From assembly GCA_964014485.1 (NCBI GenBank), contig CAXHAT010000013.1:1-62643 (forward strand): a stretch of 62,643 nucleotides of DNA. Direction: 5' to 3'. Below the pieces are notes generated by a model. It did no database searches and had not been told where the DNA came from. It saw nothing but the letters and a program-made list of their open reading frames with translations. Source of the stretch: an uncultured Deferribacteres bacterium. GTDB lineage: Bacteria > Zhuqueibacterota > Zhuqueibacteria > Zhuqueibacterales > Geothermadaptataceae. Position 1 is the stretch's first letter; every line of letters begins with the position of its first letter. Shown here one piece after another: positions 3,276 to 16,495 of this stretch. The translations under genes were made by a program, and so were the position numbers.

Positions 3276-3677
3276 TTGACATTCGTCTTGTTACAGTTTA
3301 TCGACCAGACAGAAGTCCTGACAGATGGGATTCGACTTATGAAATCAGACAGCCAAGAAATTAATTACAGCGATTACGATGAGGAATTGATTCCTGCACG
3401 GGTGCTCTTTGTTAAACGCAGTGGCAACATTGCTATTGAACTCGAAGTGGATGGTTATAGAGGCGAAAAGACCGGAGAAGTGTATTACAGCAGGGATACG
3501 TTGGTATGGGCAGAAAGCATGGCAAAAGAAGTCGAGCAAAAAGGCGTGGGATTAATTCTGTCTTTCAATATTCCTCGCTTTGCTTTAATCCCAAAGATTC
3601 AATCCACTAACAATGTCGCAAGCGACATTTACAAATCTAGCACATACGGAATAAAAGAATACTCTTTCGCAACGTGA
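3276..3677 (+). CDS. Hypothetical protein
   Basis: 133-aa ORF, start uncertain (ATG 3339 possible). Confidence 0.4.
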   Translation: MTFVLLQFIDQTEVLTDGIRLMKSDSQEINYSDYDEELIPARVLFVKRSGNIAIELEVDGYRGEKTGEVYYSRDTLVWAESMAKEVEQKGVGLILSFNIPRFALIPKIQSTNNVASDIYKSSTYGIKEYSFAT

Positions 3678-3855
3678 TACGAGTTGCGAAGAGATAGAAA
3701 GACAGTATTGCCGAGTAGTACGGAGACCCAAGTCCCTCATGAGCCTTGAAAGTCGTCACATCGCCGAGCTCTTTTAGCCTGTCTTGTAGATACCCTTTCA
3801 GCTCAGGGTAATTGGTTATGGTTGCAAAATCATAATAATAAGTTTTTGTTGGCAT
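3637..3855 (-). CDS. Hypothetical protein
   Basis: AAAGGAG ribosome-binding site upstream of ATG. Confidence 0.6.
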   Translation of the reverse strand: MPTKTYYYDFATITNYPELKGYLQDRLKELGDVTTFKAHEGLGSPYYSAILSFYLFATRITLRKSILLFRMC

Positions 3856-3890
3856 GGTTATGCTCCTTTGGCTCTGCGGCCGTTTTGTGT

Positions 3891-4235
3891 CTAATCAAAG
3901 TGCCGCATAAAAAATACCTTGTCATACCTTGTCCCTCTTGATTGTTTATAAAAATGATTCTCTGGAAAATACTTGACAAGGTTTGACCCGCTCTTGATAA
4001 TCCCATGTCTTACGCGCCGAAGGTCAATTTCCAATTCTGTAGCAATATCCCTTAGCATCGGTAGTGTGTAGTCGATGTCGTCGTATCGAGAAATCACGAT
4101 AGCTACATGCTTCTGTGAATTTTCAGAGAGATATTTCACTGCATCGAAGCAAAGTAAAAACGTTGAACCGTCTCCGCGCTCCCTTAAAATCTTAGGAGTG
4201 TTACGCACCCTTTCTAATCGTTCGTAATCAATCAT
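3891..4235 (-). CDS. Hypothetical protein with degenerate P-loop-like segment
   Basis: RERGDGST followed by helix and hydrophobic strand; AGGA upstream. Confidence 0.55.
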   Translation of the reverse strand: MIDYERLERVRNTPKILRERGDGSTFLLCFDAVKYLSENSQKHVAIVISRYDDIDYTLPMLRDIATELEIDLRRVRHGIIKSGSNLVKYFPENHFYKQSRGTRYDKVFFMRHFD

Positions 4236-4588
4236 TATTCCCTAATCCCGAAAATCCCACGAAACCTTTTCCAGCAATCGACTCGCCGCCACGCGATGGC
4301 ATTCTCGCATCAGGTTGCTGCATACAGATGTTGACCCGCCGCGATCCCTGCATTCATGCCAAACCCTCGTCTTTTTTCTGTGATTTCCAATTTACAAGTT
4401 CATCGTAGGTCATGTACTTGGCGTTATTTCGGCCTAAGTTGTTTCTTTTTATGGCTCGTTCCGCTTGTGGTCGTTCACGGTACAAGTGTGCCGCGCCAAG
4501 AGTATCGCCCCAACCATGACGGCCTTGCCAGAACCGAAAACTGCCGTTGTTGTTGTGGAATATCACAAAGTATGTAGACACACTCATG

Positions 4589-4798
4589 TCAACTCCTCCG
4601 CTCCATATCTTCAAGATTTTGAAGTTTTTGATCAATCATTGAAACTATATCGGATCGCAAATCTGAGTATTTGAGCTTTCCACCCAAGTACGCTTTCCAA
4701 CGACCCCAACATCCAGAAGGGACCGAATCATCACGCACTATTTCATAACCCCTATACACATAGACACCATTTTCAATTTTCTTGATTTTGCGAGTCAT
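4589..4798 (-). CDS. Hypothetical protein
   Basis: GGAGG RBS; part of leftward operon. Confidence 0.6.
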   Translation of the reverse strand: MTRKIKKIENGVYVYRGYEIVRDDSVPSGCWGRWKAYLGGKLKYSDLRSDIVSMIDQKLQNLEDMERRS

Positions 4799-4865
4799 TC
4801 TGAAGCCTCCATTATTTTTACTTTTTAGAGCCTATCACCAGATAGGCTCTTTTTCTGTAACGCTT

Positions 4866-5087
4866 TTACTGTTGTAAGTACCAGCCAATCCCGCCATCTT
4901 TCATTTCCGAATCTGTCTTGATTCTAGACAGGAATACAAATTCCTCATGTTTCGTTTCAGCATCTCTAACTTCAATATACTTCCCGAAATTGTCATTGTA
5001 CTTGCCAATTACGTAAGCCTCCCGAATTGTGTCTGGGCCAGATACCGCAAATAATTTATCGTTTAGTTCGTGTACTAGCTGATTCAT
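4866..5087 (-). CDS. Hypothetical protein, first gene of leftward operon
   Basis: GGAG RBS, TACAAT -10 at 5133-5128. Confidence 0.65.
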   Translation of the reverse strand: MNQLVHELNDKLFAVSGPDTIREAYVIGKYNDNFGKYIEVRDAETKHEEFVFLSRIKTDSEMKDGGIGWYLQQ

Positions 5088-6479: not shown

Positions 6480-7538
6480 CTATAGCAGACTTGTCTCGAT
6501 TGTGTTAAGTGCAACTCGGCTATTGTCCTGATGACCGTATATCGTTAATGTTGTGTCTAGTTTTTTGTGGCCAAGCCGTTTTTGGGCAATCTTCGGATGA
6601 CCCTGGTCAACAATGTAGCGACCAACAGCGTGGCGTAAAGCGTGCGGCAAAGCATCCTTCATTCTGCCTGAAAAACCAGCTATTCGCGCAACGTGTCGAT
6701 TACACTTTCTAATTGATTCAGATGAGTGGGGCAAGCCGTGACGAAGGCACTGAGGGCAGGTTGGGTGCTGCTCAAATGGTGCGTGCCAAGGGCAGTTCGT
6801 TACACGAGTGAAAACATAATTATGATTGACGTGTGGACGAACCGCAAGCCAGCGTTTTAAATAGTTGGCTAGCTTGTCTCCATAAAATGCGTTTCGGATT
6901 TCACTCTTTCCGGTTTTTGCCTCACCTTCTACCCTCATAATGTAGTAGTTCTCTATGTTGCCATCTTTGTCGATGACACCTTGAGGCGAATCAAGTCCAA
7001 GGCGATCCATTGTCAATGTCTTCACTTCGCCATTCCGAATTGCCGTCTCTATGACGGTTAAGAAAACGACGGCTGACGCAATTTGATTTAATACGCTAGA
7101 CTTCGTCATGGCCTTGGCTGCGTTTACCATCAGCAAAAGGTCTTCCCTCTCTAGTACAGTATCGTCGTCTCTAGCTTTGTTTTTCCGAACAGTGTGGTGA
7201 AATGAGAAAGGTTTTTTGCTGCACCGATTGGGGTATCGCTCACGAGCAAACTTCTCGACAAATTGAACAGTTTGTAAATACCCGCTGATTGTGGTTTGGG
7301 CAATACCTCGTTCCTGTTCAGACGCTAGCCATTCATCAATCATAAACGGTTTCAGTTTTTTCATCGACAAATCACACAACGGCGATTTGTGGCTTGAGTA
7401 AATAAACCGACAAAACGAACTAACTCGGTATTTGTGATTCTTGATGTCATTCTTGCTATTACCCTGAGATTTCAGGAACAGCAAATACTCTTCGTGAGCG
7501 CGGCGAAAGGTTAGCACATTATTTTTCCAAGTAAACAT
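6480..7538 (-). CDS. int: Tyrosine recombinase/integrase
   Basis: AIRNGEV (R), AKTGK (K), HALRH, LGH, TTLTIY catalytic motifs; N-terminal core-binding region. Confidence 0.92.
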   Translation of the reverse strand: MFTWKNNVLTFRRAHEEYLLFLKSQGNSKNDIKNHKYRVSSFCRFIYSSHKSPLCDLSMKKLKPFMIDEWLASEQERGIAQTTISGYLQTVQFVEKFARERYPNRCSKKPFSFHHTVRKNKARDDDTVLEREDLLLMVNAAKAMTKSSVLNQIASAVVFLTVIETAIRNGEVKTLTMDRLGLDSPQGVIDKDGNIENYYIMRVEGEAKTGKSEIRNAFYGDKLANYLKRWLAVRPHVNHNYVFTRVTNCPWHAPFEQHPTCPQCLRHGLPHSSESIRKCNRHVARIAGFSGRMKDALPHALRHAVGRYIVDQGHPKIAQKRLGHKKLDTTLTIYGHQDNSRVALNTIETSLL

Positions 7539-7970: not shown

Positions 7971-8312
7971 ATGGACGTATTTGGGCGCGAATTGGGCGCG
8001 AATTGGGTGTACATAGCAGCATTTGCGTTTGCCCTCGCGTACAACCACTTGATTGCAAAGCTTCACAAAAATGGAACGCTGGAAGGGTTCACATGGCTTT
8101 CTGTTTCGGTTGGTGTTGCGGTGACGTTGTGGTTGGGAAATTTTTTGATTGATTACGAGGACATTCTGAGGATTCTTGGTTTGTTTGTGGCTAGCGGCTT
8201 GCCAATGATTATCGGTGAGATTTTTAGATACCGACAGGCCAGAAATGCAGAGTTAGAGGATGTTCGTTTAGGAGTACGGAGTAGTGTCAAAAGCGAGAGC
8301 TTGGCCGAATAA
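7971..8312 (+). CDS. Membrane protein (3 TM)
   Basis: Three hydrophobic segments. Confidence 0.7.
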   Translation: MDVFGRELGANWVYIAAFAFALAYNHLIAKLHKNGTLEGFTWLSVSVGVAVTLWLGNFLIDYEDILRILGLFVASGLPMIIGEIFRYRQARNAELEDVRLGVRSSVKSESLAE

Positions 8313-8508
8313 CGCCAAAAACGCCAGAGACAGAAGCGCGGAGGAGATACAGATGTCCATAATGAAATTGGAGAAATTGATCGCCAGAGTTGGAAAAGGT
8401 GAATTTACGCGGGTTGGTTTAGAGCGCGATTTATATGAGTTGCTTAAGCACAATATGGTAGCTATCCGGCATTTAGAGAGTGTTGGGGCTGCAACAAGGC
8501 CAGAGTAA
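8284..8508 (+). CDS. Hypothetical protein
   Basis: AGGAG RBS before GTG; helical composition. Confidence 0.55.
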   Translation: MSKARAWPNNAKNARDRSAEEIQMSIMKLEKLIARVGKGEFTRVGLERDLYELLKHNMVAIRHLESVGAATRPE

Positions 8509-8793
8509 AAACGGCCACGGATACTGCTAATTACTCGCTGATTCGTGGGTCAATGCTAGAGGTACCAAGACGATGAAATCCAAAACAACAGTAACCATCA
8601 AGATAAAAGGATTAGGGAAGCTAAAGCTGACACCAGCACAGGCTGAAGAATTGCAGACTGAACTTAATGACTTGCTAGGCATTCCTGAAGACGAGCAGCA
8701 AACAAGCGTGGTGTGTTCGCCAACTCGTCGGTTTATTTCGAGTGGCGGGTTAAACAACACTAGCTTCTCCACAATGTCGCTTGGAAAACAAAC

Positions 8794-8994
8794 ATGGTGA
8801 CAATCCATGAAGTAGAGAAACGCTTAAAGGCAATCAATGAAATAAAAAACGACGATGAAGCTGCACACGCGATGGAGGACAATTTGTGGTGCGATGTTCT
8901 AGAAGCTATTGCCAGCGGCGCGGCGAATCCCCAGAAACTAGCCAAAGCCGTTCTTCGCTCTCGTGAATGCGGATTTGCAAGGTGGTGTGCGTAA
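8794..8994 (+). CDS. Small conserved-type phage protein
   Basis: DDEAAHAMEDNLW...VLEAIA...F.RWCA pattern common in phages. Confidence 0.7.
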   Translation: MVTIHEVEKRLKAINEIKNDDEAAHAMEDNLWCDVLEAIASGAANPQKLAKAVLRSRECGFARWCA

Positions 8995-9334
8995 ATGCGA
9001 ACAAGCAAAACCTGTAGCACATGCACTCACTGGGAAAAAACAGGGATGAAATGCACCAAATTAGAGAAGTCAGATGGCTTGACCCACATGGTGAGTGCAG
9101 TCGAATCGGCAGTTTGTGCGACGACTGCACAACGGCTTGGACATATGTAAGCGGGGCTAGTGTTGATTGTGAGGCAAATCTGATTACTCAGCCTCACTTT
9201 GGATGCAACTTATGGGAGCCTAAGCAAGGAGGCAAATGATGAGTGTTGATTTAAGCAAGTGGGGTGGAACTGTTGTATGGGATATGAAGAAAGAACGACA
9301 AAAAAGCGAAACCATGAAAGGTATTCTTTCCCAG

Positions 9335-9628
9335 TTAGCTAGCTCCCCTTCTCTTCAGCCATTCAGCGACGCCGACCTTAAGCATCTCGTCCCAGCTAGC
9401 AAACTTAGTTGTTCTAGCGATGAAATCGTTCCACTTGACACTATTGACCTCTTCGGCATTTTGAATACCGCTTTTATTAGTCATCTCGTTGAGAGTTGCG
9501 TGATCGGTATAACGCCGCATGAAATCGTCAGTGAATAAGTCATCAAGTGTATACGACAGACTTCCTCCTAGCGATTCTAGCTTCTTTCCAAATTCGTCAA
9601 TGTTTCTATTTAGATCATCAAAGCTCAT
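9335..9628 (-). CDS. Leftward moron, hypothetical protein
   Basis: GGAG RBS, own promoter at 9694-9667; LFTDDFMRRYT...WNDFI...TKFASWDEML. Confidence 0.75.
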   Translation of the reverse strand: MSFDDLNRNIDEFGKKLESLGGSLSYTLDDLFTDDFMRRYTDHATLNEMTNKSGIQNAEEVNSVKWNDFIARTTKFASWDEMLKVGVAEWLKRRGAS

Positions 9629-9714
9629 GATTATCTCCAATGTGAAACTACCAACAGAGACTGTCGATTCTAGCCAAGTTGCATCATGGCGCAATAGAAC
9701 GGGTGTTTTTAGCC

Positions 9715-10029
9715 ATGAGTAAGCAATCAAAGAAACGCAAGTGGCACTACGCCTTTACGTATCCAAAAACAGATGATGGTCTGGTAACTGCATGGGCAAA
9801 ACCGTCAGGTTTTCCGCAGCCGTTTGTGCTTGGCAATTATCTCATGGAGGTTGTAAGAGGCGAAAGAGAGGAAGAGCCGCTTTATTTTGAATACGGGCGC
9901 ACAACGGTTGATGCACTCGAAAAATTAAAGGCGCAGCTACCAGATGAACCGCCTATGAAGAGCCAAAGATTTGATTTATTGCAATTTGCAGAGCAGATAA
10001 CGAAAAGGATACGCCATGTTTTTGGATAG
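9715..10029 (+). CDS. Hypothetical protein
   Basis: ORF from MSKQSK; C-terminus runs antisense into the next gene. Confidence 0.55.
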   Translation: MSKQSKKRKWHYAFTYPKTDDGLVTAWAKPSGFPQPFVLGNYLMEVVRGEREEEPLYFEYGRTTVDALEKLKAQLPDEPPMKSQRFDLLQFAEQITKRIRHVFG

Positions 10030-10300
10030 AGGCTTTCAGTTTGTTCAATTTAGTATCATCTCGCATGGCTTCGAGGGCTTGATGCCCTTTAAATGTAAGG
10101 CTTGTAATAATGACTGCTTTGATTTCATCGTCTCCGCGCAACGGTCTTCCATTTGCCCAGCCAATTTCAAGAATCTCGCTTTGATTATAAAGAATCTGCT
10201 TCTTGGTGTACTTGCTCAAGTCTGGCGACTCTTCACCCTCAATTTGAATCATGATCAACTTCAACAATTCGAGGTCAAGTTTTTTATTGCTTTGCGACAC
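9953..10300 (-). CDS. Leftward moron, DUF2513-like protein
   Basis: DLELLKLIMIQIE...SLTFKGHQALEAMRDD; AAAGGAG RBS; own promoter. Confidence 0.75.
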   Translation of the reverse strand: MSQSNKKLDLELLKLIMIQIEGEESPDLSKYTKKQILYNQSEILEIGWANGRPLRGDDEIKAVIITSLTFKGHQALEAMRDDTKLNKLKASIQKHGVSFSLSALQIAINQIFGSS

Positions 10301-10582
10301 AACACACTCCTTTCAAAACTACTGATAAGGAAACATGATTTTAGCCATTATTCAGGCTCGGGCAACAGAAGGGTTCTCGGAATACAAAGAATATGAACGA
10401 TTTAACACAACTCGCACAAGCAGCGGAACAAGCAGAAGCGGCAATGGAGTCGATAGCAAATATCACGGTGATACTTTTTAACAAGTTAATCGACCAAGGT
10501 ATGACCAGAGAAGAGGCGTTAGAGCTGGCTAAGATTTATTTGGAGTCAGTGAGTTCGCCATGTAATGGCGGTGGAGGGTGGC

Positions 10583-11359
10583 GTGACTAATTACAAGCTT
10601 TATCACGGCGATTGCTTGGATGTGCTGCCGACGCTTAAACCACAGTCCATCGACGCTGTGATAGCTGACCCACCTTATGGCACAACTCACTGCAAATGGG
10701 ATAGCGTTATTCCGTTTCACAGAATGTGGTCAGTGATAAAGCACGTGTTAAAGCCCCGCGTGGCTTGCGTGCTGTTTGGTAGCCAACCGTTTACAAGCGC
10801 ACTGGTAATGAGTAATCCTAGCTGGTTCAGCCATGAATGGATTTGGAGTAAATCAAACGGTGGTGGGTTTCTGAATGCCAATCGCCAACCTTTAAAGAGG
10901 CATGAAATTGTCAGCGTATTCTCTGAAGGGCAGATGCTCTACAACCCGCAAATGACAGAAGGTAGCCCCTACGCCTGCACGAGTGCAGGCGTAGGGGCTA
11001 CCACGGCTGATTTATCAGTGATTGGGTGGCGGACAGTGAACAATGGCAAGAGATACCCAACTACTATTCAATCATTCTCAAATGACACTGGCTTACACCC
11101 CACCCAAAAACCCGTTGCTCTGCTTGAATACCTCATCAAAACCTACACCAATGAAGGCGATACAGTTCTCGATTTCACAATGGGCAGCGGTGCAACTGGC
11201 GTCGCTGCTGCAAACACAGGGCGCAAATTCATCGGCGTAGAACTTGACGCAGAATACTTTGCCATAGCCGAGCAGCGCATCAAAAACGCATACGGTAATT
11301 ACGTGATGACTGATAAGGAAAAATCCACCCCCCAGCCTTCGCTATTCGGGTGGCAATAA
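10583..11359 (+). CDS. DNA N4-C/N6-A methyltransferase (beta class), copy 1
   Basis: LYHGDCL, DPPY, HPTQKP, VLDFTMGSG. Confidence 0.95.
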   Translation: MTNYKLYHGDCLDVLPTLKPQSIDAVIADPPYGTTHCKWDSVIPFHRMWSVIKHVLKPRVACVLFGSQPFTSALVMSNPSWFSHEWIWSKSNGGGFLNANRQPLKRHEIVSVFSEGQMLYNPQMTEGSPYACTSAGVGATTADLSVIGWRTVNNGKRYPTTIQSFSNDTGLHPTQKPVALLEYLIKTYTNEGDTVLDFTMGSGATGVAAANTGRKFIGVELDAEYFAIAEQRIKNAYGNYVMTDKEKSTPQPSLFGWQ

Positions 11360-11366
11360 TGACAGT

Positions 11367-11978
11367 CTATTCCGCAACATACCCCAACTGCAAGGCGCAC
11401 ACTAGTGCAATTTCTCGCGCTGGGGATTCATCCAGTCCCTCGACGCCATCAATTGCGGTGTTCGTGCAAATCGTCAATTCCGTTGCCCGTGGCTGCAACT
11501 CAGATGCCGGGACATCGTTGTCTAGCACGACGACCCAATCTGCCGCTGTGGCTAGCTGGTTACGTTCCTCTGCCTCTCGCCATTCTGCAACGGTAGCATC
11601 GTGCAAGGTGCCGCCATCAAACCAGCGTGTTGCTAGTGGCGTTGCTGAAGGAATAGACGTTCGTGTTGGCGCGGGTGTATCGGTTGGCCCTGGTGTACTT
11701 GTCGGTTCTGGCGTGTCCGTGGGTGCTAATGTGTTTGTTGGTTCTGGTGGTGTGGTTGGCTCTGGCTCTTCGGCCGGTTCTGGTTCATCCGTTGCAGTTG
11801 GCGGTACTTCTTCTTCAACCACAGCAATTTCTTCGGTAGTTGCCCCGGCTTCGGCAGTAGCGAGATTTTCCGCTCTTCTGTCGGCTATGAAATCCTGTGC
11901 AAATTGGGTAATGACAGCACAAATAGTGAACAAGATGAACAGCGTAAAACAACCTCTCAACCAGCGGCGACGTTCCAT
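11367..11978 (-). CDS. Membrane-anchored protein with Pro/Thr-rich linker (moron, possible superinfection exclusion)
   Basis: N-terminal TM, PTDTPEPTSTP repeats, globular C-terminus WFDGGTLH...LATAADW; AGGAG RBS. Confidence 0.8.
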   Translation of the reverse strand: MERRRWLRGCFTLFILFTICAVITQFAQDFIADRRAENLATAEAGATTEEIAVVEEEVPPTATDEPEPAEEPEPTTPPEPTNTLAPTDTPEPTSTPGPTDTPAPTRTSIPSATPLATRWFDGGTLHDATVAEWREAEERNQLATAADWVVVLDNDVPASELQPRATELTICTNTAIDGVEGLDESPAREIALVCALQLGYVAE

Positions 11979-12195
11979 AACAAAACTCCTATTTTTACCC
12001 TTCCTGAGCAGAGGAGATTGTAACCACACCGTCAAAACGCGCAATAGAACGGATATTCTGGGGGATAACGCGGCCGAGTATGTTATTATTGAAGGTAGCA
12101 ACCCAACCTCTAGGTTGACCGCCATTACAAGGTTGGGCTGCAAGATTGACGGCCTTTGCCGTAGGCGTGACGTGCTTGCGGTGAAGGCTAGTTTT

Positions 12196-12528
12196 TTAGC
12201 CAGCCTTACGCCTTCCCTTTCTGGAAAATCTGATTTTAGAGAGACTACCGTTCAATCTTGGCTCAAACCTCTTGAGGAAATGTTTTTCCAAAGAGTACAA
12301 AGCCTCCTGTCTGCACGCTATCCAGCCAATATCAGCCGATGGGAGTTCCTTGATTACGGGCAACTTGTGGTGTCCACTTGTGTTCCACCTTGCCCAAATA
12401 TCCTTGGACTTTCCAATATAAACAGGCTCCCCATTTTCAAGAATGAAATACACGCCAGAAATGCGCGGCAACTGCTTGATTTTTCTAAAGTCCATTACAT
12501 CGTCGAAAACAATACTCATACTCATCAT
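12196..12528 (-). CDS. GIY-YIG nuclease-family protein
   Basis: SGVYFI...VYIGKS...RW...H...LE...PRLN. Confidence 0.85.
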   Translation of the reverse strand: MMSMSIVFDDVMDFRKIKQLPRISGVYFILENGEPVYIGKSKDIWARWNTSGHHKLPVIKELPSADIGWIACRQEALYSLEKHFLKRFEPRLNGSLSKIRFSRKGRRKAG

Positions 12529-12618
12529 TCCTTTACTAATTATGCTATTATTGAGAGTGACCCATCCTCTCGGTTGGTAGCCATTCAGAGGATGGGTGCT
12601 AATGCGGTGGTTCGTATC

Positions 12619-13113
12619 CTATGGGGTGCGAACCGCTTCATTCTCTCGAATCCCCAAGAACTCAAAGTCGAACGAATCCATTGCATCTCGGCTAGCAAAC
12701 CGATCAACCACACTTTCAATCAAATCAGGCAAGTCGGTGCCAAAATTCATGCCATCGAAAAAGTTGTATTTGGGATAGTTGTAGCTATTTCCGTTCTGAA
12801 GCGTGTCAAGGGTTTCCTGAAAATATCTAATAAAAAACACTTCCATAGTGTTTGCCAGTTGAAACCTGTCTTTGATAATCATTATTATCTCCATAATTGG
12901 GCGGTACCCTTCAGCTCTCAAACCCTTGACCCACAATTGAGATTTTGTTCGTCCGTATTTGGATGCAGCAATGTGTCCGTTGTAACGCCTTGCTGGATAA
13001 GAAGCTTGCCCCACATAGCAGATAGCTCCGCTTGCAGGGTGTCGCAAAACATAAATATAGGTTACTCCACTAATATACTTGAACTGCTTCCAATCAATAA
13101 TGTTTCTAGTCAC
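12619..13113 (-). CDS. GIY-YIG nuclease-family protein
   Basis: YIYVL...CYVGQA...RRYNGH...ME; AAAGGA RBS before GTG 13113. Confidence 0.8.
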   Translation of the reverse strand: MTRNIIDWKQFKYISGVTYIYVLRHPASGAICYVGQASYPARRYNGHIAASKYGRTKSQLWVKGLRAEGYRPIMEIIMIIKDRFQLANTMEVFFIRYFQETLDTLQNGNSYNYPKYNFFDGMNFGTDLPDLIESVVDRFASRDAMDSFDFEFLGIRENEAVRTP

Positions 13114-13261
13114 AGCAATCTTTCCTTTACTAGATGTGTTATTATTCAAGAGAGTAGCTCAACCTACGGGTTTGCTGCCTCATTGAGGTTGAGCTACGCA
13201 ATTGCGTTGGCGGGTGGAGACACGCCCGTCAACGACTTTTGCAATTCTCAAAAGATAAAAA

Positions 13262-13459
13262 CTACTCCGAAGACGTTTCCTCCTTCGTTTCACCTGTATC
13301 TTTCAAAAACTTTTCAAACATGTCTCTTATGGCACGTTCTGTTAGCCACGTCTTATTTCTGTCGTAATAAATCGTGTCTGCTGTCGATGCCATCATTTCG
13401 AGCATATTTACCGTTTCTTCGTCAAATCGCATACTTATTCTTTTCTTTGCCAAAATCAT
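13262..13459 (-). CDS. Ribbon-helix-helix regulator
   Basis: KKRISMRFDEETVNMLEMMA...NKTWLTERAIRD; divergent from promoter 13528. Confidence 0.7.
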   Translation of the reverse strand: MILAKKRISMRFDEETVNMLEMMASTADTIYYDRNKTWLTERAIRDMFEKFLKDTGETKEETSSE

Positions 13460-13527
13460 TTTTACGTCTCCATTATTCAAGAATTGCTAGCGCGATTGTA
13501 CACCACACACCAAAATATGTCAATGTC

Positions 13528-13556
13528 TTGACTTGTACGTACAAGTATGCTATCAT
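13528..13556 (+). promoter_or_regulatory. Sigma70-type promoter with 16-bp palindromic operator
   Basis: TTGACT-17-TATCAT with TG; ACTTGTACGTACAAGT at 13531-13546. Confidence 0.85.
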
Positions 13557-13593
13557 AGTCTCCGTAGTCAACCACACGAAACGGAGACAAAAA

Positions 13594-13911
13594 ATGAACC
13601 AAGTAACAATCAAAATGCCAAGAGCGCGACAAAAATACACTGACAAATACGGCATGAACTGGGAAGTATTTAGCGTTCGGCAAACACGGGCGCAAAACCC
13701 AAGAGTAAATTGGATTTTCAAAGAAATAACCCTAATAACCAGCGATGCTATCACCGACGACTGCTGGGATAACATGGACGTTGACGAGGACGCGGTTCGC
13801 TTCGGTAAAGATTATTTCTCCCGCGTAATTGTCAAAGACAAAGCCGATGACATCGACTGGGCTTGGCAAGAGTTTGTGCAAGAGCATGGAATTGAGAGGG
13901 TGCAGTCATGA
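13594..13911 (+). CDS. Hypothetical protein (the conventional gene at the 3' end of the 853-aa ORF)
   Basis: GGAG RBS, downstream of promoter, protein-like composition. Confidence 0.75.
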   Translation: MNQVTIKMPRARQKYTDKYGMNWEVFSVRQTRAQNPRVNWIFKEITLITSDAITDDCWDNMDVDEDAVRFGKDYFSRVIVKDKADDIDWAWQEFVQEHGIERVQS

Positions 13912-14784
13912 ACCAAGTAACAATTTCAACCCAAATCAAATCCCTAGAAATGATTAAGCGCACAGCAACAACTGCCCCAACCTACAACGAAAAACGGTTT
14001 ATTCCACAGATGTAACAACAAAAGCAGGAATGGTGTTGAGTGGCAGGCTTTTGGACATAAAGCCTTTTGTCGAGATGCCGATAAGGAGCAAGTAATGAAA
14101 ACAACAAAACCCATCAAACTAACCCCTGCTGAGGTTCAACAATTCAAGGAAAGCATCACTCGTTTTTGCGACATGATGAACGGTAAAATTCGCCTAACGG
14201 CCGATGGGCGTTGGGTAGAAACGGGGAAATAGCATGATTGACAAACAAACTGGCCCAATGCTTTTGGTAAGCTGTGCGATTGGCTTGGCTATTTATGCGG
14301 CGTTGTATTTCGTAGTGTTTTAGGAGCAATAAAAATGAGTTCTAAGAAACAATTTGGTGAGTTAGTCATAACCGACATTGTGAAACGCTGGGGAGGCGTC
14401 AATCAAACCACAGCTATTGCGCGGCTCGAACGCGGCGGTGTCTCCCCAAGCCACAGCGATTGGTACAAAAAACATCGGTGTGTCAAATATGCGGTGAAAG
14501 ATTCGACTGCCGTTCGTCCCGTATGTTTCGACCTGTGCGCCAAAACCGATTAAACCGCTGGCACAAGATATGCCAATCTTGCGGGGGATTAAGTGATGAT
14601 TGAATACCTGCTATTGGCTGGGTTGGCACTCGCAACGCTTGTGCTTATCGGCGTCATCGCTTGGTATATATGGCGAGCGTCGAAACTAGAAAGGTCTGAG
14701 GAATGACTGAATTTTTACTGATAGCACTGTTGGTGTTTCTGGCCATTGTAGCAGCGGTTGGGCTTGTGGAGGCTGTTAGGTCTC

Positions 14785-15255
14785 ATGATGATTAACCAGC
14801 CGTCGCTGTTGCCAAATGTCGCGCCACAGACGCGCATTGACCGCCTGAAACAGTGCGCCAAATGCGTCAAATTCAAGCCGTATGCAGCTTTCTACGTTGA
14901 CCGCAGTCGTCATGACCAGAAAACCACGCGCTGCATTATGTGCATACGTGAATGGAAACGTGAGTACGACCGCTCCGAAATGGGTCACAAAAACAACCGC
15001 AACAGAAAGCGGCGCGACTATGACAAGGTTCAGGCAAGACGCGCGGTTCACAATGCAATTTTGGCGGGTGGCATGAAACCAGCAAAGGAACATGACTGTG
15101 TTCATTGTGGCCGTCAAGCAAAGCACTGGCACCACCCCAACGGCTACAGCATAGAGCATTGGTTTGACGTTGAAGCCGTTTGCGTGAGGTGCCACGTGGA
15201 TATACATGACCCGTTTATTGAAACGCCATTCGGGCAATTGAGGTTAGGGATATGA
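14785..15255 (+). CDS. HNH endonuclease with N-terminal zinc-binding domain
   Basis: CAKC...CIMC; CVHCG...HWHH...VCVRCH..IH. Confidence 0.8.
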   Translation: MMINQPSLLPNVAPQTRIDRLKQCAKCVKFKPYAAFYVDRSRHDQKTTRCIMCIREWKREYDRSEMGHKNNRNRKRRDYDKVQARRAVHNAILAGGMKPAKEHDCVHCGRQAKHWHHPNGYSIEHWFDVEAVCVRCHVDIHDPFIETPFGQLRLGI

Positions 15256-16043
15256 CATACAAACTCTATCACGGGGATTGTTTGGAGGTGTTGCCAACGC
15301 TGGAGGCACAATCGGCTGACGCTGTGATAGCAGACGTGCCTTACGGCACAACAGCCTGCAAGTGGGATTCTGTTATCCCCTTTGAACCAATGTGGGCGGG
15401 GATAAAGCATGTCACCAAACCCAAGGCGGCGATTGTGCTGTTTGGTAGCCAACCGTTCACAAGTGCGCTGGTGATGAGTAATGCAGACTGGTTTAAGTAT
15501 TGCTGGGTGTGGAACAAGGTGTCTGGCGTTGGCTTCCAATCTGTATCAAAGATGCCTTTAAAAAGCCATGAAGATATTGCCGTTTTCTGTAGTGGGCAAC
15601 CAACATTTAACCCACAAATGACAAAGGGCGACCCATATACGCGCCCCCAATCGAGCGGGGGCGCGTATATGGGTCGCGATACGGCTCAAAAATTTAGCGG
15701 ATGGGTTACTGTAAATAATGGTTTAAGGTATCCAAAGTCGATAGTTAAGAAATCAAATGCAGACCAAACAGGTAGATTGCACCCGACCCAAAAACCCGTC
15801 GCCCTACTTGAATATCTCATCAAAACCTACACAAACGAAGGCGACACGGTTCTCGATTTCACAATGGGTAGCGGTACAACTGGCGTGGCAGCGGCCAATA
15901 CAGGCCGCAAATTTATCGGCATAGAACTAGACGCTGAATATTTCGCCATTGCCGAACATCGTATCAAAAACGCATACGGCGATTATGTGATGACGGAAAA
16001 GGAAAAGCAAGTTCCCCAGCCGTCACTATTCGGGTGGCAATAA
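15252..16043 (+). CDS. DNA N4-C/N6-A methyltransferase (beta class), copy 2
   Basis: LYHGDCL, DVPY, HPTQKP, VLDFTMGSGTT. Confidence 0.95.
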   Translation: MTYKLYHGDCLEVLPTLEAQSADAVIADVPYGTTACKWDSVIPFEPMWAGIKHVTKPKAAIVLFGSQPFTSALVMSNADWFKYCWVWNKVSGVGFQSVSKMPLKSHEDIAVFCSGQPTFNPQMTKGDPYTRPQSSGGAYMGRDTAQKFSGWVTVNNGLRYPKSIVKKSNADQTGRLHPTQKPVALLEYLIKTYTNEGDTVLDFTMGSGTTGVAAANTGRKFIGIELDAEYFAIAEHRIKNAYGDYVMTEKEKQVPQPSLFGWQ

Positions 16044-16047
16044 TGAC

Positions 16048-16263
16048 TCACTCATCAGGATTGGGTTTTGGTTTTTCCACGTCAGTAGCGATTAAGCGAC
16101 GCATGTACTCAGCCATGCTAACCCTAGCTAGGATTGCACGTTCTCTGAGTTTTTCATGCAAAGATTCTGGAAGATTGAAACGTAATGACGTGAACTTCTC
16201 GCCGTACATTTCCTCGAAGGATGGCGGCCCCGTTTTTTTGTTCTCTTTTTTGTTATCGGACAT
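16048..16263 (-). CDS. Arc/ribbon-helix-helix regulator, probably leaderless
   Basis: LRFNLPESLHEKLRERA...SMAEYMRRLI; TACAAT 7 nt before ATG. Confidence 0.8.
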   Translation of the reverse strand: MSDNKKENKKTGPPSFEEMYGEKFTSLRFNLPESLHEKLRERAILARVSMAEYMRRLIATDVEKPKPNPDE

Positions 16264-16302
16264 GAAATACATTGTAAACCACAACACAATCACGGCGCAA
16301 CC

Positions 16303-16495
16303 TTGACACATTAGATTATCCGTAGTACAATTACTACACATTGATTAAAAGCCTTTGGCGAGGCAATAGGTAAAAGCGAAATGAATCTAACAATTAAAAC
16401 ACCTCTCTCTTCAGGGCATCAACCGCCCCGCTTTTACCAAGAAATATCGCCAAATTTCATGGGTGAAGGTGCCTTGAACAGAGGGGTGTTTTCTT
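16303..16495 (+). promoter_or_regulatory. Promoter and structured attenuator-like leader
   Basis: TTGACA-17-TACAAT; GTAGTA..TACTAC operator; long stem 16396-16492 followed by T-rich tail. Confidence 0.75.

Follow-up and report, generated by a model that had tools for sequence, protein, structure and literature searches.

The nested eta and kil genes of phage P4, reportedly described by Forti et al. in 1999 (J Bacteriol 181:5225), form the nearest known counterpart of the arrangement considered here. In the accessible part of one published account of this phage, eta is coupled to the gene upstream of it and its translation averts termination, with the result that the genes downstream are reached, and Kil, the shorter one, lies nested within the eta frame (PMC10111431). 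Rho and NusG terminate nascent transcripts that are not translated, antisense RNAs included, according to the available text of PMC11551753. Long open reading frames (ORFs) opposite real genes have been described in other settings. Passive shadow ORFs, which lie antisense to and in register with one real gene, are attributed to codon usage in the available sections of PMC3454372, and in Pseudomonas aeruginosa and E. coli O157:H7 long antisense ORFs inside single annotated genes have been proposed to be translated and argued to encode selected proteins (PMC8850804, PMC9927249, both in their accessible portions). Free-standing homing endonuclease genes of the T4 type overlap ORFs upstream of them and are proposed to be translated by coupling, with UAAUGA at the nrdA/mobE junction (PMC2988022, as far as its accessible text goes). 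The present analysis concerns an 850-codon + strand frame that runs antisense across four genes of a temperate tailed phage. The phage occupies a 62,643-nt contig (CAXHAT010000013.1 of assembly GCA_964014485.1, an uncultured Deferribacteres bacterium; the whole of this stretch is the window referred to below). The openness of this frame is beyond chance and has very likely been selected, when all readings in which the frame is translated are taken together.

The frame, referred to here as the main bridge ORF, connects the DNA methyltransferase gene M1 with p105, a conventional gene of 105 codons into which it runs on in frame (13594-13911). The last base of the M1 stop codon (TAA, 11357-11359) is also the first base of the bridge start codon (ATG, 11359-11361), giving the sequence TAATG, and if a GTG at 11350 is taken as the start the product has 853 aa (11350..13911). 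The stop-free run itself begins even earlier, at 11317, and with its 864 codons (11317..13911) is the second longest open frame on the contig. Opposite to it lie four leftward genes (g1 to g4, in the order in which the bridge meets them), four spacers amounting to 553 nt in all and a divergent pair of promoter-like sites. Relative to the bridge frame g1 is in register 1, g2 and g3 are in register 2 and g4 is in register 0, so that three registers are crossed, and g2 and g3, which encode proteins of the GIY-YIG type, are codon-aligned with it. A preliminary description of this DNA, made from its letters and ORFs, had already reported the TAATG overlap, the 850 stop-free codons, the four leftward genes in three registers with their spacers and promoter, the final gene, and the alignment of both GIY-YIG genes with a lack of TTA, CTA and TCA codons; every one of these descriptive points held on re-examination. 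M1 and g1 are convergent, their stop codons being separated by 7 nt, and no terminator is present there. This distance leaves no room for a terminator, and rightward transcripts must therefore enter the cassette formed by g1 to g4.

At the sequence level this layout is reminiscent of P4 eta as portrayed in the accessible part of PMC10111431. In both cases a long ORF is coupled to the gene upstream (here by TAATG at M1), and a shorter in-frame gene stands at its end with a promoter inside (here p105, with the promoter-like site at 13528-13556). In both cases, too, translation and not the product is taken to keep transcription going, which for the present locus we infer from sequence alone. The two differ in what lies beneath the frame: in that account eta overlies a same-strand immunity RNA that directs termination, whereas the bridge is antisense and passes through four protein genes and a divergent promoter pair. 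The bridge is about 850 codons long, and neither a Pfam family above cut-off nor a homologue connects it to Eta/Bro; it would accordingly resemble P4 eta in its working and not by descent. With passive shadow ORFs the bridge shares an open frame opposite real genes, which over the codon-aligned g2 and g3 rests on absent TTA, CTA and TCA codons. Unlike them, it crosses three registers and 553 nt of spacers and starts and ends on coupling overlaps. Unlike the antisense genes proposed in P. aeruginosa and E. coli, its amino-acid sequence looks irrelevant and its frame links neighboring genes of an operon. The T4-type endonuclease genes are comparable in that GIY-YIG genes lie between phage genes with overlapping stops and starts; the accessible text of PMC2988022 describes no stop-free frame on the opposite strand, whereas here the nuclease genes oppose the operon and the operon strand is kept open. 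A literature search, with subscription journals mostly outside its coverage, returned no description of stop-free frames kept across antisense genes for read-through. The suggestion that no such system had been described therefore stands as regards antisense frames; it does not extend to the general idea, for which P4 eta, in the available account, is a precedent of a coupled ORF whose translation prevents termination (PMC10111431). By this comparison the known principle would be translation that protects a transcript from termination, and what appears new is its antisense form crossing protein genes.

Between the stop of M1 and the start of p105 the bridge frame holds no stop in 742 codons, against 35 and 45 stops in the other two + frames. 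The preliminary description had proposed to redraw the synonymous codons of the leftward genes and to count how often the frame stays open. This was done with the leftward proteins held fixed, using 20,000 resamples per gene with the codon usage of the phage and 10,000 with that of the 8.4-Mb metagenome-assembled genome (MAG) in which the contig lies, and open frames proved rare. The probabilities for g1 to g4 were 0.0585, 0.0054, 0.0040 and 0.0085 with phage usage (product 1.06e-8) and 0.061, 0.092, 0.076 and 0.0086 with MAG usage (product 3.7e-6). For the four spacers, dinucleotide shuffles (5,000 each) yielded 0.013, 0.16, 0.20 and 0.086 (product 3.6e-5); if the codon-aligned g2 and g3 are left out altogether, the remaining factors (0.0585 x 0.0085 x 3.6e-5) still multiply to about 1.8e-8. 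The null was calibrated on 38 blocks of 200 codons taken from + strand phage genes and read in their three antisense frames, in which 282, 294 and 394 stops were observed per frame against 280, 266 and 420 expected, and none of the 114 block-frames was stop-free. Among their 19 leucine and 21 serine codons g2 and g3 together contain no TTA, no CTA and no TCA, and outside leucine and serine the fraction of A-ending third positions is 0.23 in g2 and 0.25 in g3, against 0.22 in the rest of the phage. Furthermore, 109 single substitutions that are silent in the leftward genes or intergenic would each create a stop in the bridge frame, so that an unselected frame would decay quickly. By these measures the bridge frame is open beyond chance.

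The open frame recurs over other leftward genes of the same operon, which strengthens the earlier reading; these further bridges, and the unbridged controls with which they can be compared, had not been seen in the preliminary description. About 1 kb upstream of the main bridge a second bridge ORF of 126 codons, with AAGGA before its ATG, crosses a leftward gene with a DUF2513 domain (9953-10300; Pfam 1e-12, above cut-off). Its start precedes by 14 nt the stop of the + gene that ends at 10029, and its end overlaps, as ATGA, the + gene that starts at 10393; its probability of being open is 0.0026, and the other + frames hold 10 and 6 stops. Further upstream, two ORFs tile across the leftward gene 9335-9730 (PHROG 2211, 1e-10; probable true start at 9628). 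The first of them (9236-9538) carries AAGGAGG and overlaps, as ATGA, the gene that ends at 9239, and the second (9519-9722) ends 5 nt after the ATG of the next gene at 9715. In 254 of 5,000 resamples the tiling was equally good (P ~0.05). At the other end of the region, an ORF begins in the TAATG at the stop of M2, a second methyltransferase gene, covers most of a leftward gene for a FitA-like ribbon-helix-helix (RHH) protein (16048-16341; 3.1e-5) and ends where the next + promoter-like site begins (16303). All of these bridges begin and end in overlaps of the coupling type (TAATG, ATGA, or 8-20 nt). By comparison, leftward genes that lie to the left of the rightward unit, namely the integrase and the cluster at 3637-5087, have 15-23 stops in every + frame and no tiling ORFs. 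None of the shorter bridge ORFs has a Pfam match. Outside the window, 26 viral and metagenome loci (382 kb) contain nine inverted islands, one of which, 255 nt long and present twice (L042/L043), is fully spanned, numbers too small to support any statement; at locus L015 a GIY-YIG relative is co-oriented with its neighbors and is not bridged.

These observations suggest a model in which the frames act as escort ORFs. Where a leftward gene or cassette lies inside a rightward transcription unit, the + strand would keep a stop-free frame whose start coincides with, or shortly precedes, the stop of the + gene before it, and whose end falls on or within the + gene that follows. In the main bridge, ribosomes that finish M1 would restart at TAATG and translate 850 codons antisense through g1 to g4, and the bridge sequence would not be kept for the protein it encodes. 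The rightward transcript would in this manner never present a long naked stretch: translation would block the loading of Rho on the C-rich antisense RNA, a following ribosome would hinder the folding of the + strand hairpin at 12148-12197, and both ribosomes and RNA polymerase would be delivered to p105 and beyond. The cost to the leftward genes would be that codons and codon pairs reading as stops on the other strand are never used. A benefit of this kind, suppression of Rho-dependent polarity or of hairpin termination, had been proposed in the preliminary description, and what fits it is circumstantial. Along the cassette, C outnumbers G in the + strand RNA in 15 of the 19 windows (120 nt each) into which it was divided, and Rho is encoded in the MAG that contains the contig. 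The hairpin, a stem of 20 bp located between g1 and g2 inside the bridge, looks like a + strand intrinsic terminator, and the minus strand folds far less (z -1.3). With the bridges counted, the longest untranslated + stretch in the rightward unit from 7971 to 16306 is 64 nt; without them, gaps of about 2.2, 0.36 and 0.47 kb would open in the + strand of this region. That the bridges are translated and protect the rightward transcript from termination by Rho or at hairpins, or from polarity, appears to us an evenly balanced proposition.

Several observations weigh against this reading and have to be set beside the evidence for it. As p105 has a promoter-like site of its own, there is no obvious need for the downstream genes to depend on read-through from M1, and the strong terminator-like hairpin within the bridge could just as well serve to end + transcripts. 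The bridge over 9335-9730 is only marginal, and the frame that follows M2 over 16048-16341 was discarded as a replicate, its openness (P 0.84) being expected from the protein sequence alone. The MAG is uncertain as the phage host, having been assigned by binning only. Public copies of the region are ~99-100% identical, three sequencing runs, all from one study, show no difference in the cassette, the public runs listed for the phage include no RNA run, and in none of the collections searched did the cassette have a diverged relative. For codon-aligned frames, moreover, significance is overstated when average codon usage is resampled. The contigs of the MAG itself contain four shadow ORFs of 854, 650, 608 and 603 codons (on C35, C38, C28 and C194, that on C35 spanning two genes), all codon-aligned in a single register (register 0) opposite long genes, and under such resampling they too reach P <= 7e-4. 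This bears directly on the view that the bridge is a chance or compositional by-product, an extreme shadow ORF picked from a very large scan that takes in many windows. The genes under the MAG shadow ORFs end in A in 0.07-0.13 of the codons of their four-fold families and lack TTA, CTA and TCA though 7-13 are expected from average usage; a gene-specific bias can hence create aligned shadow ORFs. The same explanation fails for the bridge, because A-ending codons are not scarce in g2 and g3 (0.34 and 0.37 of four-fold families), from which TTA, CTA and TCA are nevertheless absent. Of a gene-specific null built on Lys, Glu and Gln codons only the A-ending fractions were used in this comparison, as it mispredicts TTA in MAG genes. 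The bridge was accordingly not classed as a passive shadow ORF, neither by register (1, 2, 2 and 0, plus four spacers totaling 553 nt) nor by scarcity of A-ending codons. Its probability without the aligned genes stays at ~2e-8, the controls gave 0/114 open block-frames, and 1 kb upstream there is an independent second bridge, overlapping its neighbors at either end. On balance a chance origin is very improbable. The bridge frame or parts of it might instead be one or more real overlapping protein genes, for instance a long isoform of p105 or several antisense genes; the frame is open, has an ATG start and continues in frame into a real gene, long translated antisense genes have been reported in the accessible portions of PMC8850804 and PMC9927249, and one public gene call predicted an 850-aa protein here. 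Among 5.8 billion clustered proteins, however, the 853-aa product finds only itself as a relative; it has no Pfam family above cut-off, and its best Atlas feature score (0.79) is within the range of shuffled sequences. Its composition is antisense-like, with 2.7 times the phage average of Cys, 2.1 times that of Ser and 0.3-0.4 times that of Asp/Glu, and its codon score is near zero where those of the leftward frames are positive. The frame also crosses promoters, Shine-Dalgarno sites and structured repeats, and a protein reading would have to take in three further bridges whose composition is equally odd, which makes a protein gene distinctly improbable. The impression recorded in the preliminary description, that the product does not look like protein, is borne out by the skewed composition and the absence of relatives and Pfam families.

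Two alternatives accept that the frame is kept open and differ in what keeps it so. According to one, openness is a property of mobile units, each consisting of a backward nuclease gene and a hairpin element, with a length that is a multiple of three and a stop-free opposite strand, which would land in a translated operon at little cost, so that the long frame would be a sum of frame-neutral insertions. It draws support from g2 and g3, both of the GIY-YIG type, both codon-aligned and both with the same element ahead of them in the same + phase, at spacings of 462 and 594 nt. The frame is, however, just as free of stops over g1, g4, the promoter region and the 217-nt spacer, which are not nuclease units, and the DUF2513 bridge has no nuclease at all. 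As the mobility of g2 and g3 is putative and the view is compatible with the escort reading, describing the same selective force at another level, we regard it as an improbable explanation in its own right. The other alternative holds that the frames are open and translated for a benefit other than control of termination. The bridge could relay coupling to the next + gene, or the ribosomes could keep RNases off the + RNA or prevent it from pairing with the leftward mRNAs, or RNA polymerase pushed by ribosomes could win head-on encounters and silence the leftward operon by transcriptional interference. All bridges begin and end in coupling-type overlaps, a near-consensus leftward promoter (11/12) faces the bridge, so that convergent transcription is expected, and the promoter-like site of p105 implies that rescue of transcription is not strictly required. 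The + strand hairpin with its U run and the C-rich + RNA point more directly to termination, and the present evidence does not separate these benefits from protection against Rho or hairpins; we consider such other benefits unlikely, while ranking them above a mobile-unit origin. Under the escort reading, the inference made in the preliminary description that the open frame and not the protein is selected finds support in the resampling, the spacer shuffles, the controls, the composition of the product and its lack of relatives.

Coordinates of the bridge ORFs, the genes and elements beneath them and other features of the window
Feature	Position	Strand	Remarks
Main bridge (escort) ORF	11359..13911	+	850 codons from an ATG overlapping the M1 stop
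M1, N6/N4 DNA methyltransferase	10565..11359	+	Pfam PF01555 1.1e-29; upstream neighbor coupled to the main bridge
g1, 203-aa protein	11367-11978	-	AGGAG before ATG; register 1
Hairpin + AATAATARCA element, copy 1	12081..12140	-	~100 nt upstream of g1
Hairpin with G-U pairs, then TTTTTT (U6)	12148..12197	+	-29.4 kcal/mol, z -4.0
g2, 110-aa GIY-YIG (UvrC N-terminal-like) nuclease domain protein	12196-12528	-	Codon-aligned with the bridge
Hairpin + AATAATARCA element, copy 2	12543..12600	-	Directly upstream of g2; 462 nt (3 x 154) from copy 1
g3, 176-aa GIY-YIG endonuclease	12619-13149	-	Codon-aligned with the bridge
Hairpin + AATAATARCA element, copy 3	13137..13204	-	Directly upstream of g3; 594 nt (3 x 198) from copy 2
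g4, small probable RHH regulator	13262-13459 (or to 13480)	-	Register 0
Back-to-back divergent promoter-like sites	13495..13556		Minus site 13523..13495 (11/12 matches); + site 13528..13556 (10/12, with TG)
p105, conventional 105-aa gene, nested in frame at the bridge end	13594-13911	+	Own GGAGA Shine-Dalgarno and promoter-like site
Second bridge ORF, 126 codons	10016..10396	+	AAGGA before ATG; crosses leftward DUF2513 gene 9953-10300
Two tiling ORFs, 9236-9538 and 9519-9722	9236..9722	+	Across leftward gene 9335-9730
ORF from the TAATG at the M2 stop	16043..16306	+	Over most of leftward RHH gene 16048-16341
M2, M1 paralogue, 71% identical	15252-16043	+	Same TAATGAC end as M1
Integrase	6480-7538	leftward	

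The leftward genes g1 to g4 are real genes, and their frames have positive codon scores. In the g1 protein a membrane anchor at the N-terminus is followed by a linker rich in Pro and Thr and by an orphan C-terminal domain without detectable relatives in database comparison, and the exact protein has been called on 88 public contigs. Apparent homologues of g1 in databases were set aside, since they match the Pro/Thr linker only. This build is TonB-like, the NCBIfam TonB matches being weak and driven by the spacer. Both g2 and g3 encode a predicted GIY-YIG catalytic domain. In g2 it is recovered by the Pfam GIY-YIG model (3.3e-4, 21.3 bits, just below cut-off), by PHROG 1111 (1.6e-5) and by the NCBIfam model of the UvrC N-terminus (4.6e-6). 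In g3 the Pfam GIY-YIG model scores 24.9 bits against a cut-off of 22.6 (2.5e-5), the sequence aligns with the conserved motif Y..YVG..R..H..E..N of the family, and relatives at E<=1e-3 number 1,191 proteins among 1.84 billion representatives. The first gene of the leftward operon, g4, encodes 65 aa from an ATG preceded by GGAG or 72 aa from a TTG at 13480, and it combines the best codon score of the cassette with a near-consensus promoter. Although it has no Pfam or NCBIfam match, its Atlas feature matches (0.90-0.93) are to small viral proteins and to clusters of the RHH/TraM type, which can serve as a lead only. A perfect 14-bp palindrome (CTTGTACGTACAAG, 13532-13545) lies between the -35 and -10 elements of the + promoter-like site and adjoins the leftward site, and is likely to be the operator of a switch between g4 and p105. 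The gene p105 itself has been called on 108 public contigs. An identical 17-nt repeat (ATGAACCAAGTAACAAT) is present at 13594-13610 and 13908-13924. It supplies the opening codons (MNQVTI) both of p105 and of the small ORF that follows (13908-14015), which suggests an insertion, at the start of the latter and with a copied start, of either p105 or the entire block preceding 13908.

The three copies of the AATAATARCA element have the same phase relative to the + frame, and their stems differ in sequence and still pair. Their hairpins have energies of -22 to -24 kcal/mol (z -3.5 to -5) and a partly conserved loop, and there is no further copy on the contig. An Rfam scan gave no match in the cassette region, this element included. 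It could be a processing site, a binding site for a regulator or a part of a mobile nuclease unit, and its constant phase fits a modular, frame-neutral build-up of the cassette. The possibility that the cassette is an invertible segment was dropped, there being no flanking inverted repeats.

Searches for relatives of the cassette returned little beyond methyltransferase matches. With blastn, phage records gave methyltransferase matches only, and a DNA search of 41 related genomes yielded short methyltransferase matches only. With tblastn, g1 retrieved nothing and g3 two remote matches. Viral contigs with p105, g3, g1, Erf or P0012 proved to be distant loci from which the cassette is absent by a tblastn check, metagenome contigs with g1 matched through the Pro/Thr linker only, and genome contigs searched with p105 and g3 gave nothing. 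A terminase search of 29 genomes of the order recovered only the copy of the phage contig itself. For homing of g2 and g3, relatives were not recovered in either form, with the insert or lacking it.

The wider setting is that of a temperate tailed phage (contig C13, 62.6 kb), with genes for an Erf recombinase, HTH regulators, replication proteins, a large terminase, a portal, a major head protein and a tape-measure-like protein. From ~7.8 kb to the contig end nearly all genes are rightward, and successive genes either overlap in their starts and stops or leave only short gaps. Within this unit two tandem modules (10565-13600 and 15252-16340) are built on one plan, comprising a methyltransferase, the sequence TAATGAC, one or more leftward genes ending with a small gene of RHH type, and a rightward promoter-like site. 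Directly ahead of M2 lies a gene for an HNH endonuclease (14758-15255). Each of the two methyltransferase genes contains a perfect inverted repeat of 20-21 bp (10961-11002 and 15628-15677), with arms 2 and 8 nt apart; the two repeats occupy an equivalent position, which is the most divergent part of the protein, and are unrelated in sequence. Their appearance is that of palindromic insertions made in frame, or of a recombination device, in a variable region. Between 14234 and 14795 a succession of tiny + ORFs (29, 37 and 30 aa), which overlap or are separated by a few bases, encodes single hydrophobic helices; they are probably genuine, small membrane peptides that belong to the early operon.

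Thus, in conclusion, the bridges point to a long reading frame which, if the escort reading is true, would be under strong selection for the absence of stops alone. That escort ORFs are a general and so far undescribed design layer of phages, in which selection recodes backward genes and spacers and one frame of the operon strand is translated only to retain ribosomes, seems to us slightly short of an even proposition. We extend a similarly tentative judgment to the corollary that the backward genes in such units would include selfish nucleases and lysogeny or regulatory cassettes. The trace that this general form would leave, namely absent TTA, CTA and TCA codons and absent stop-forming codon pairs in backward genes, is likewise a little less than evenly supported. 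Were the reading true, the codon choice of backward genes would be shaped by the opposite strand, and gene finders would miscall such regions, as with the predicted 850-aa "protein"; a stop-free frame of several registers with coupling overlaps at both ends would then provide a signature for annotation. It would likewise follow that inverted inserts could be made non-polar by recoding. For the phages themselves, the single precedent of P4 eta would be extended to protein-coding antisense cassettes, and it would become apparent how phages can tolerate inverted morons, regulators and selfish nucleases in long operons without dedicated antiterminators.

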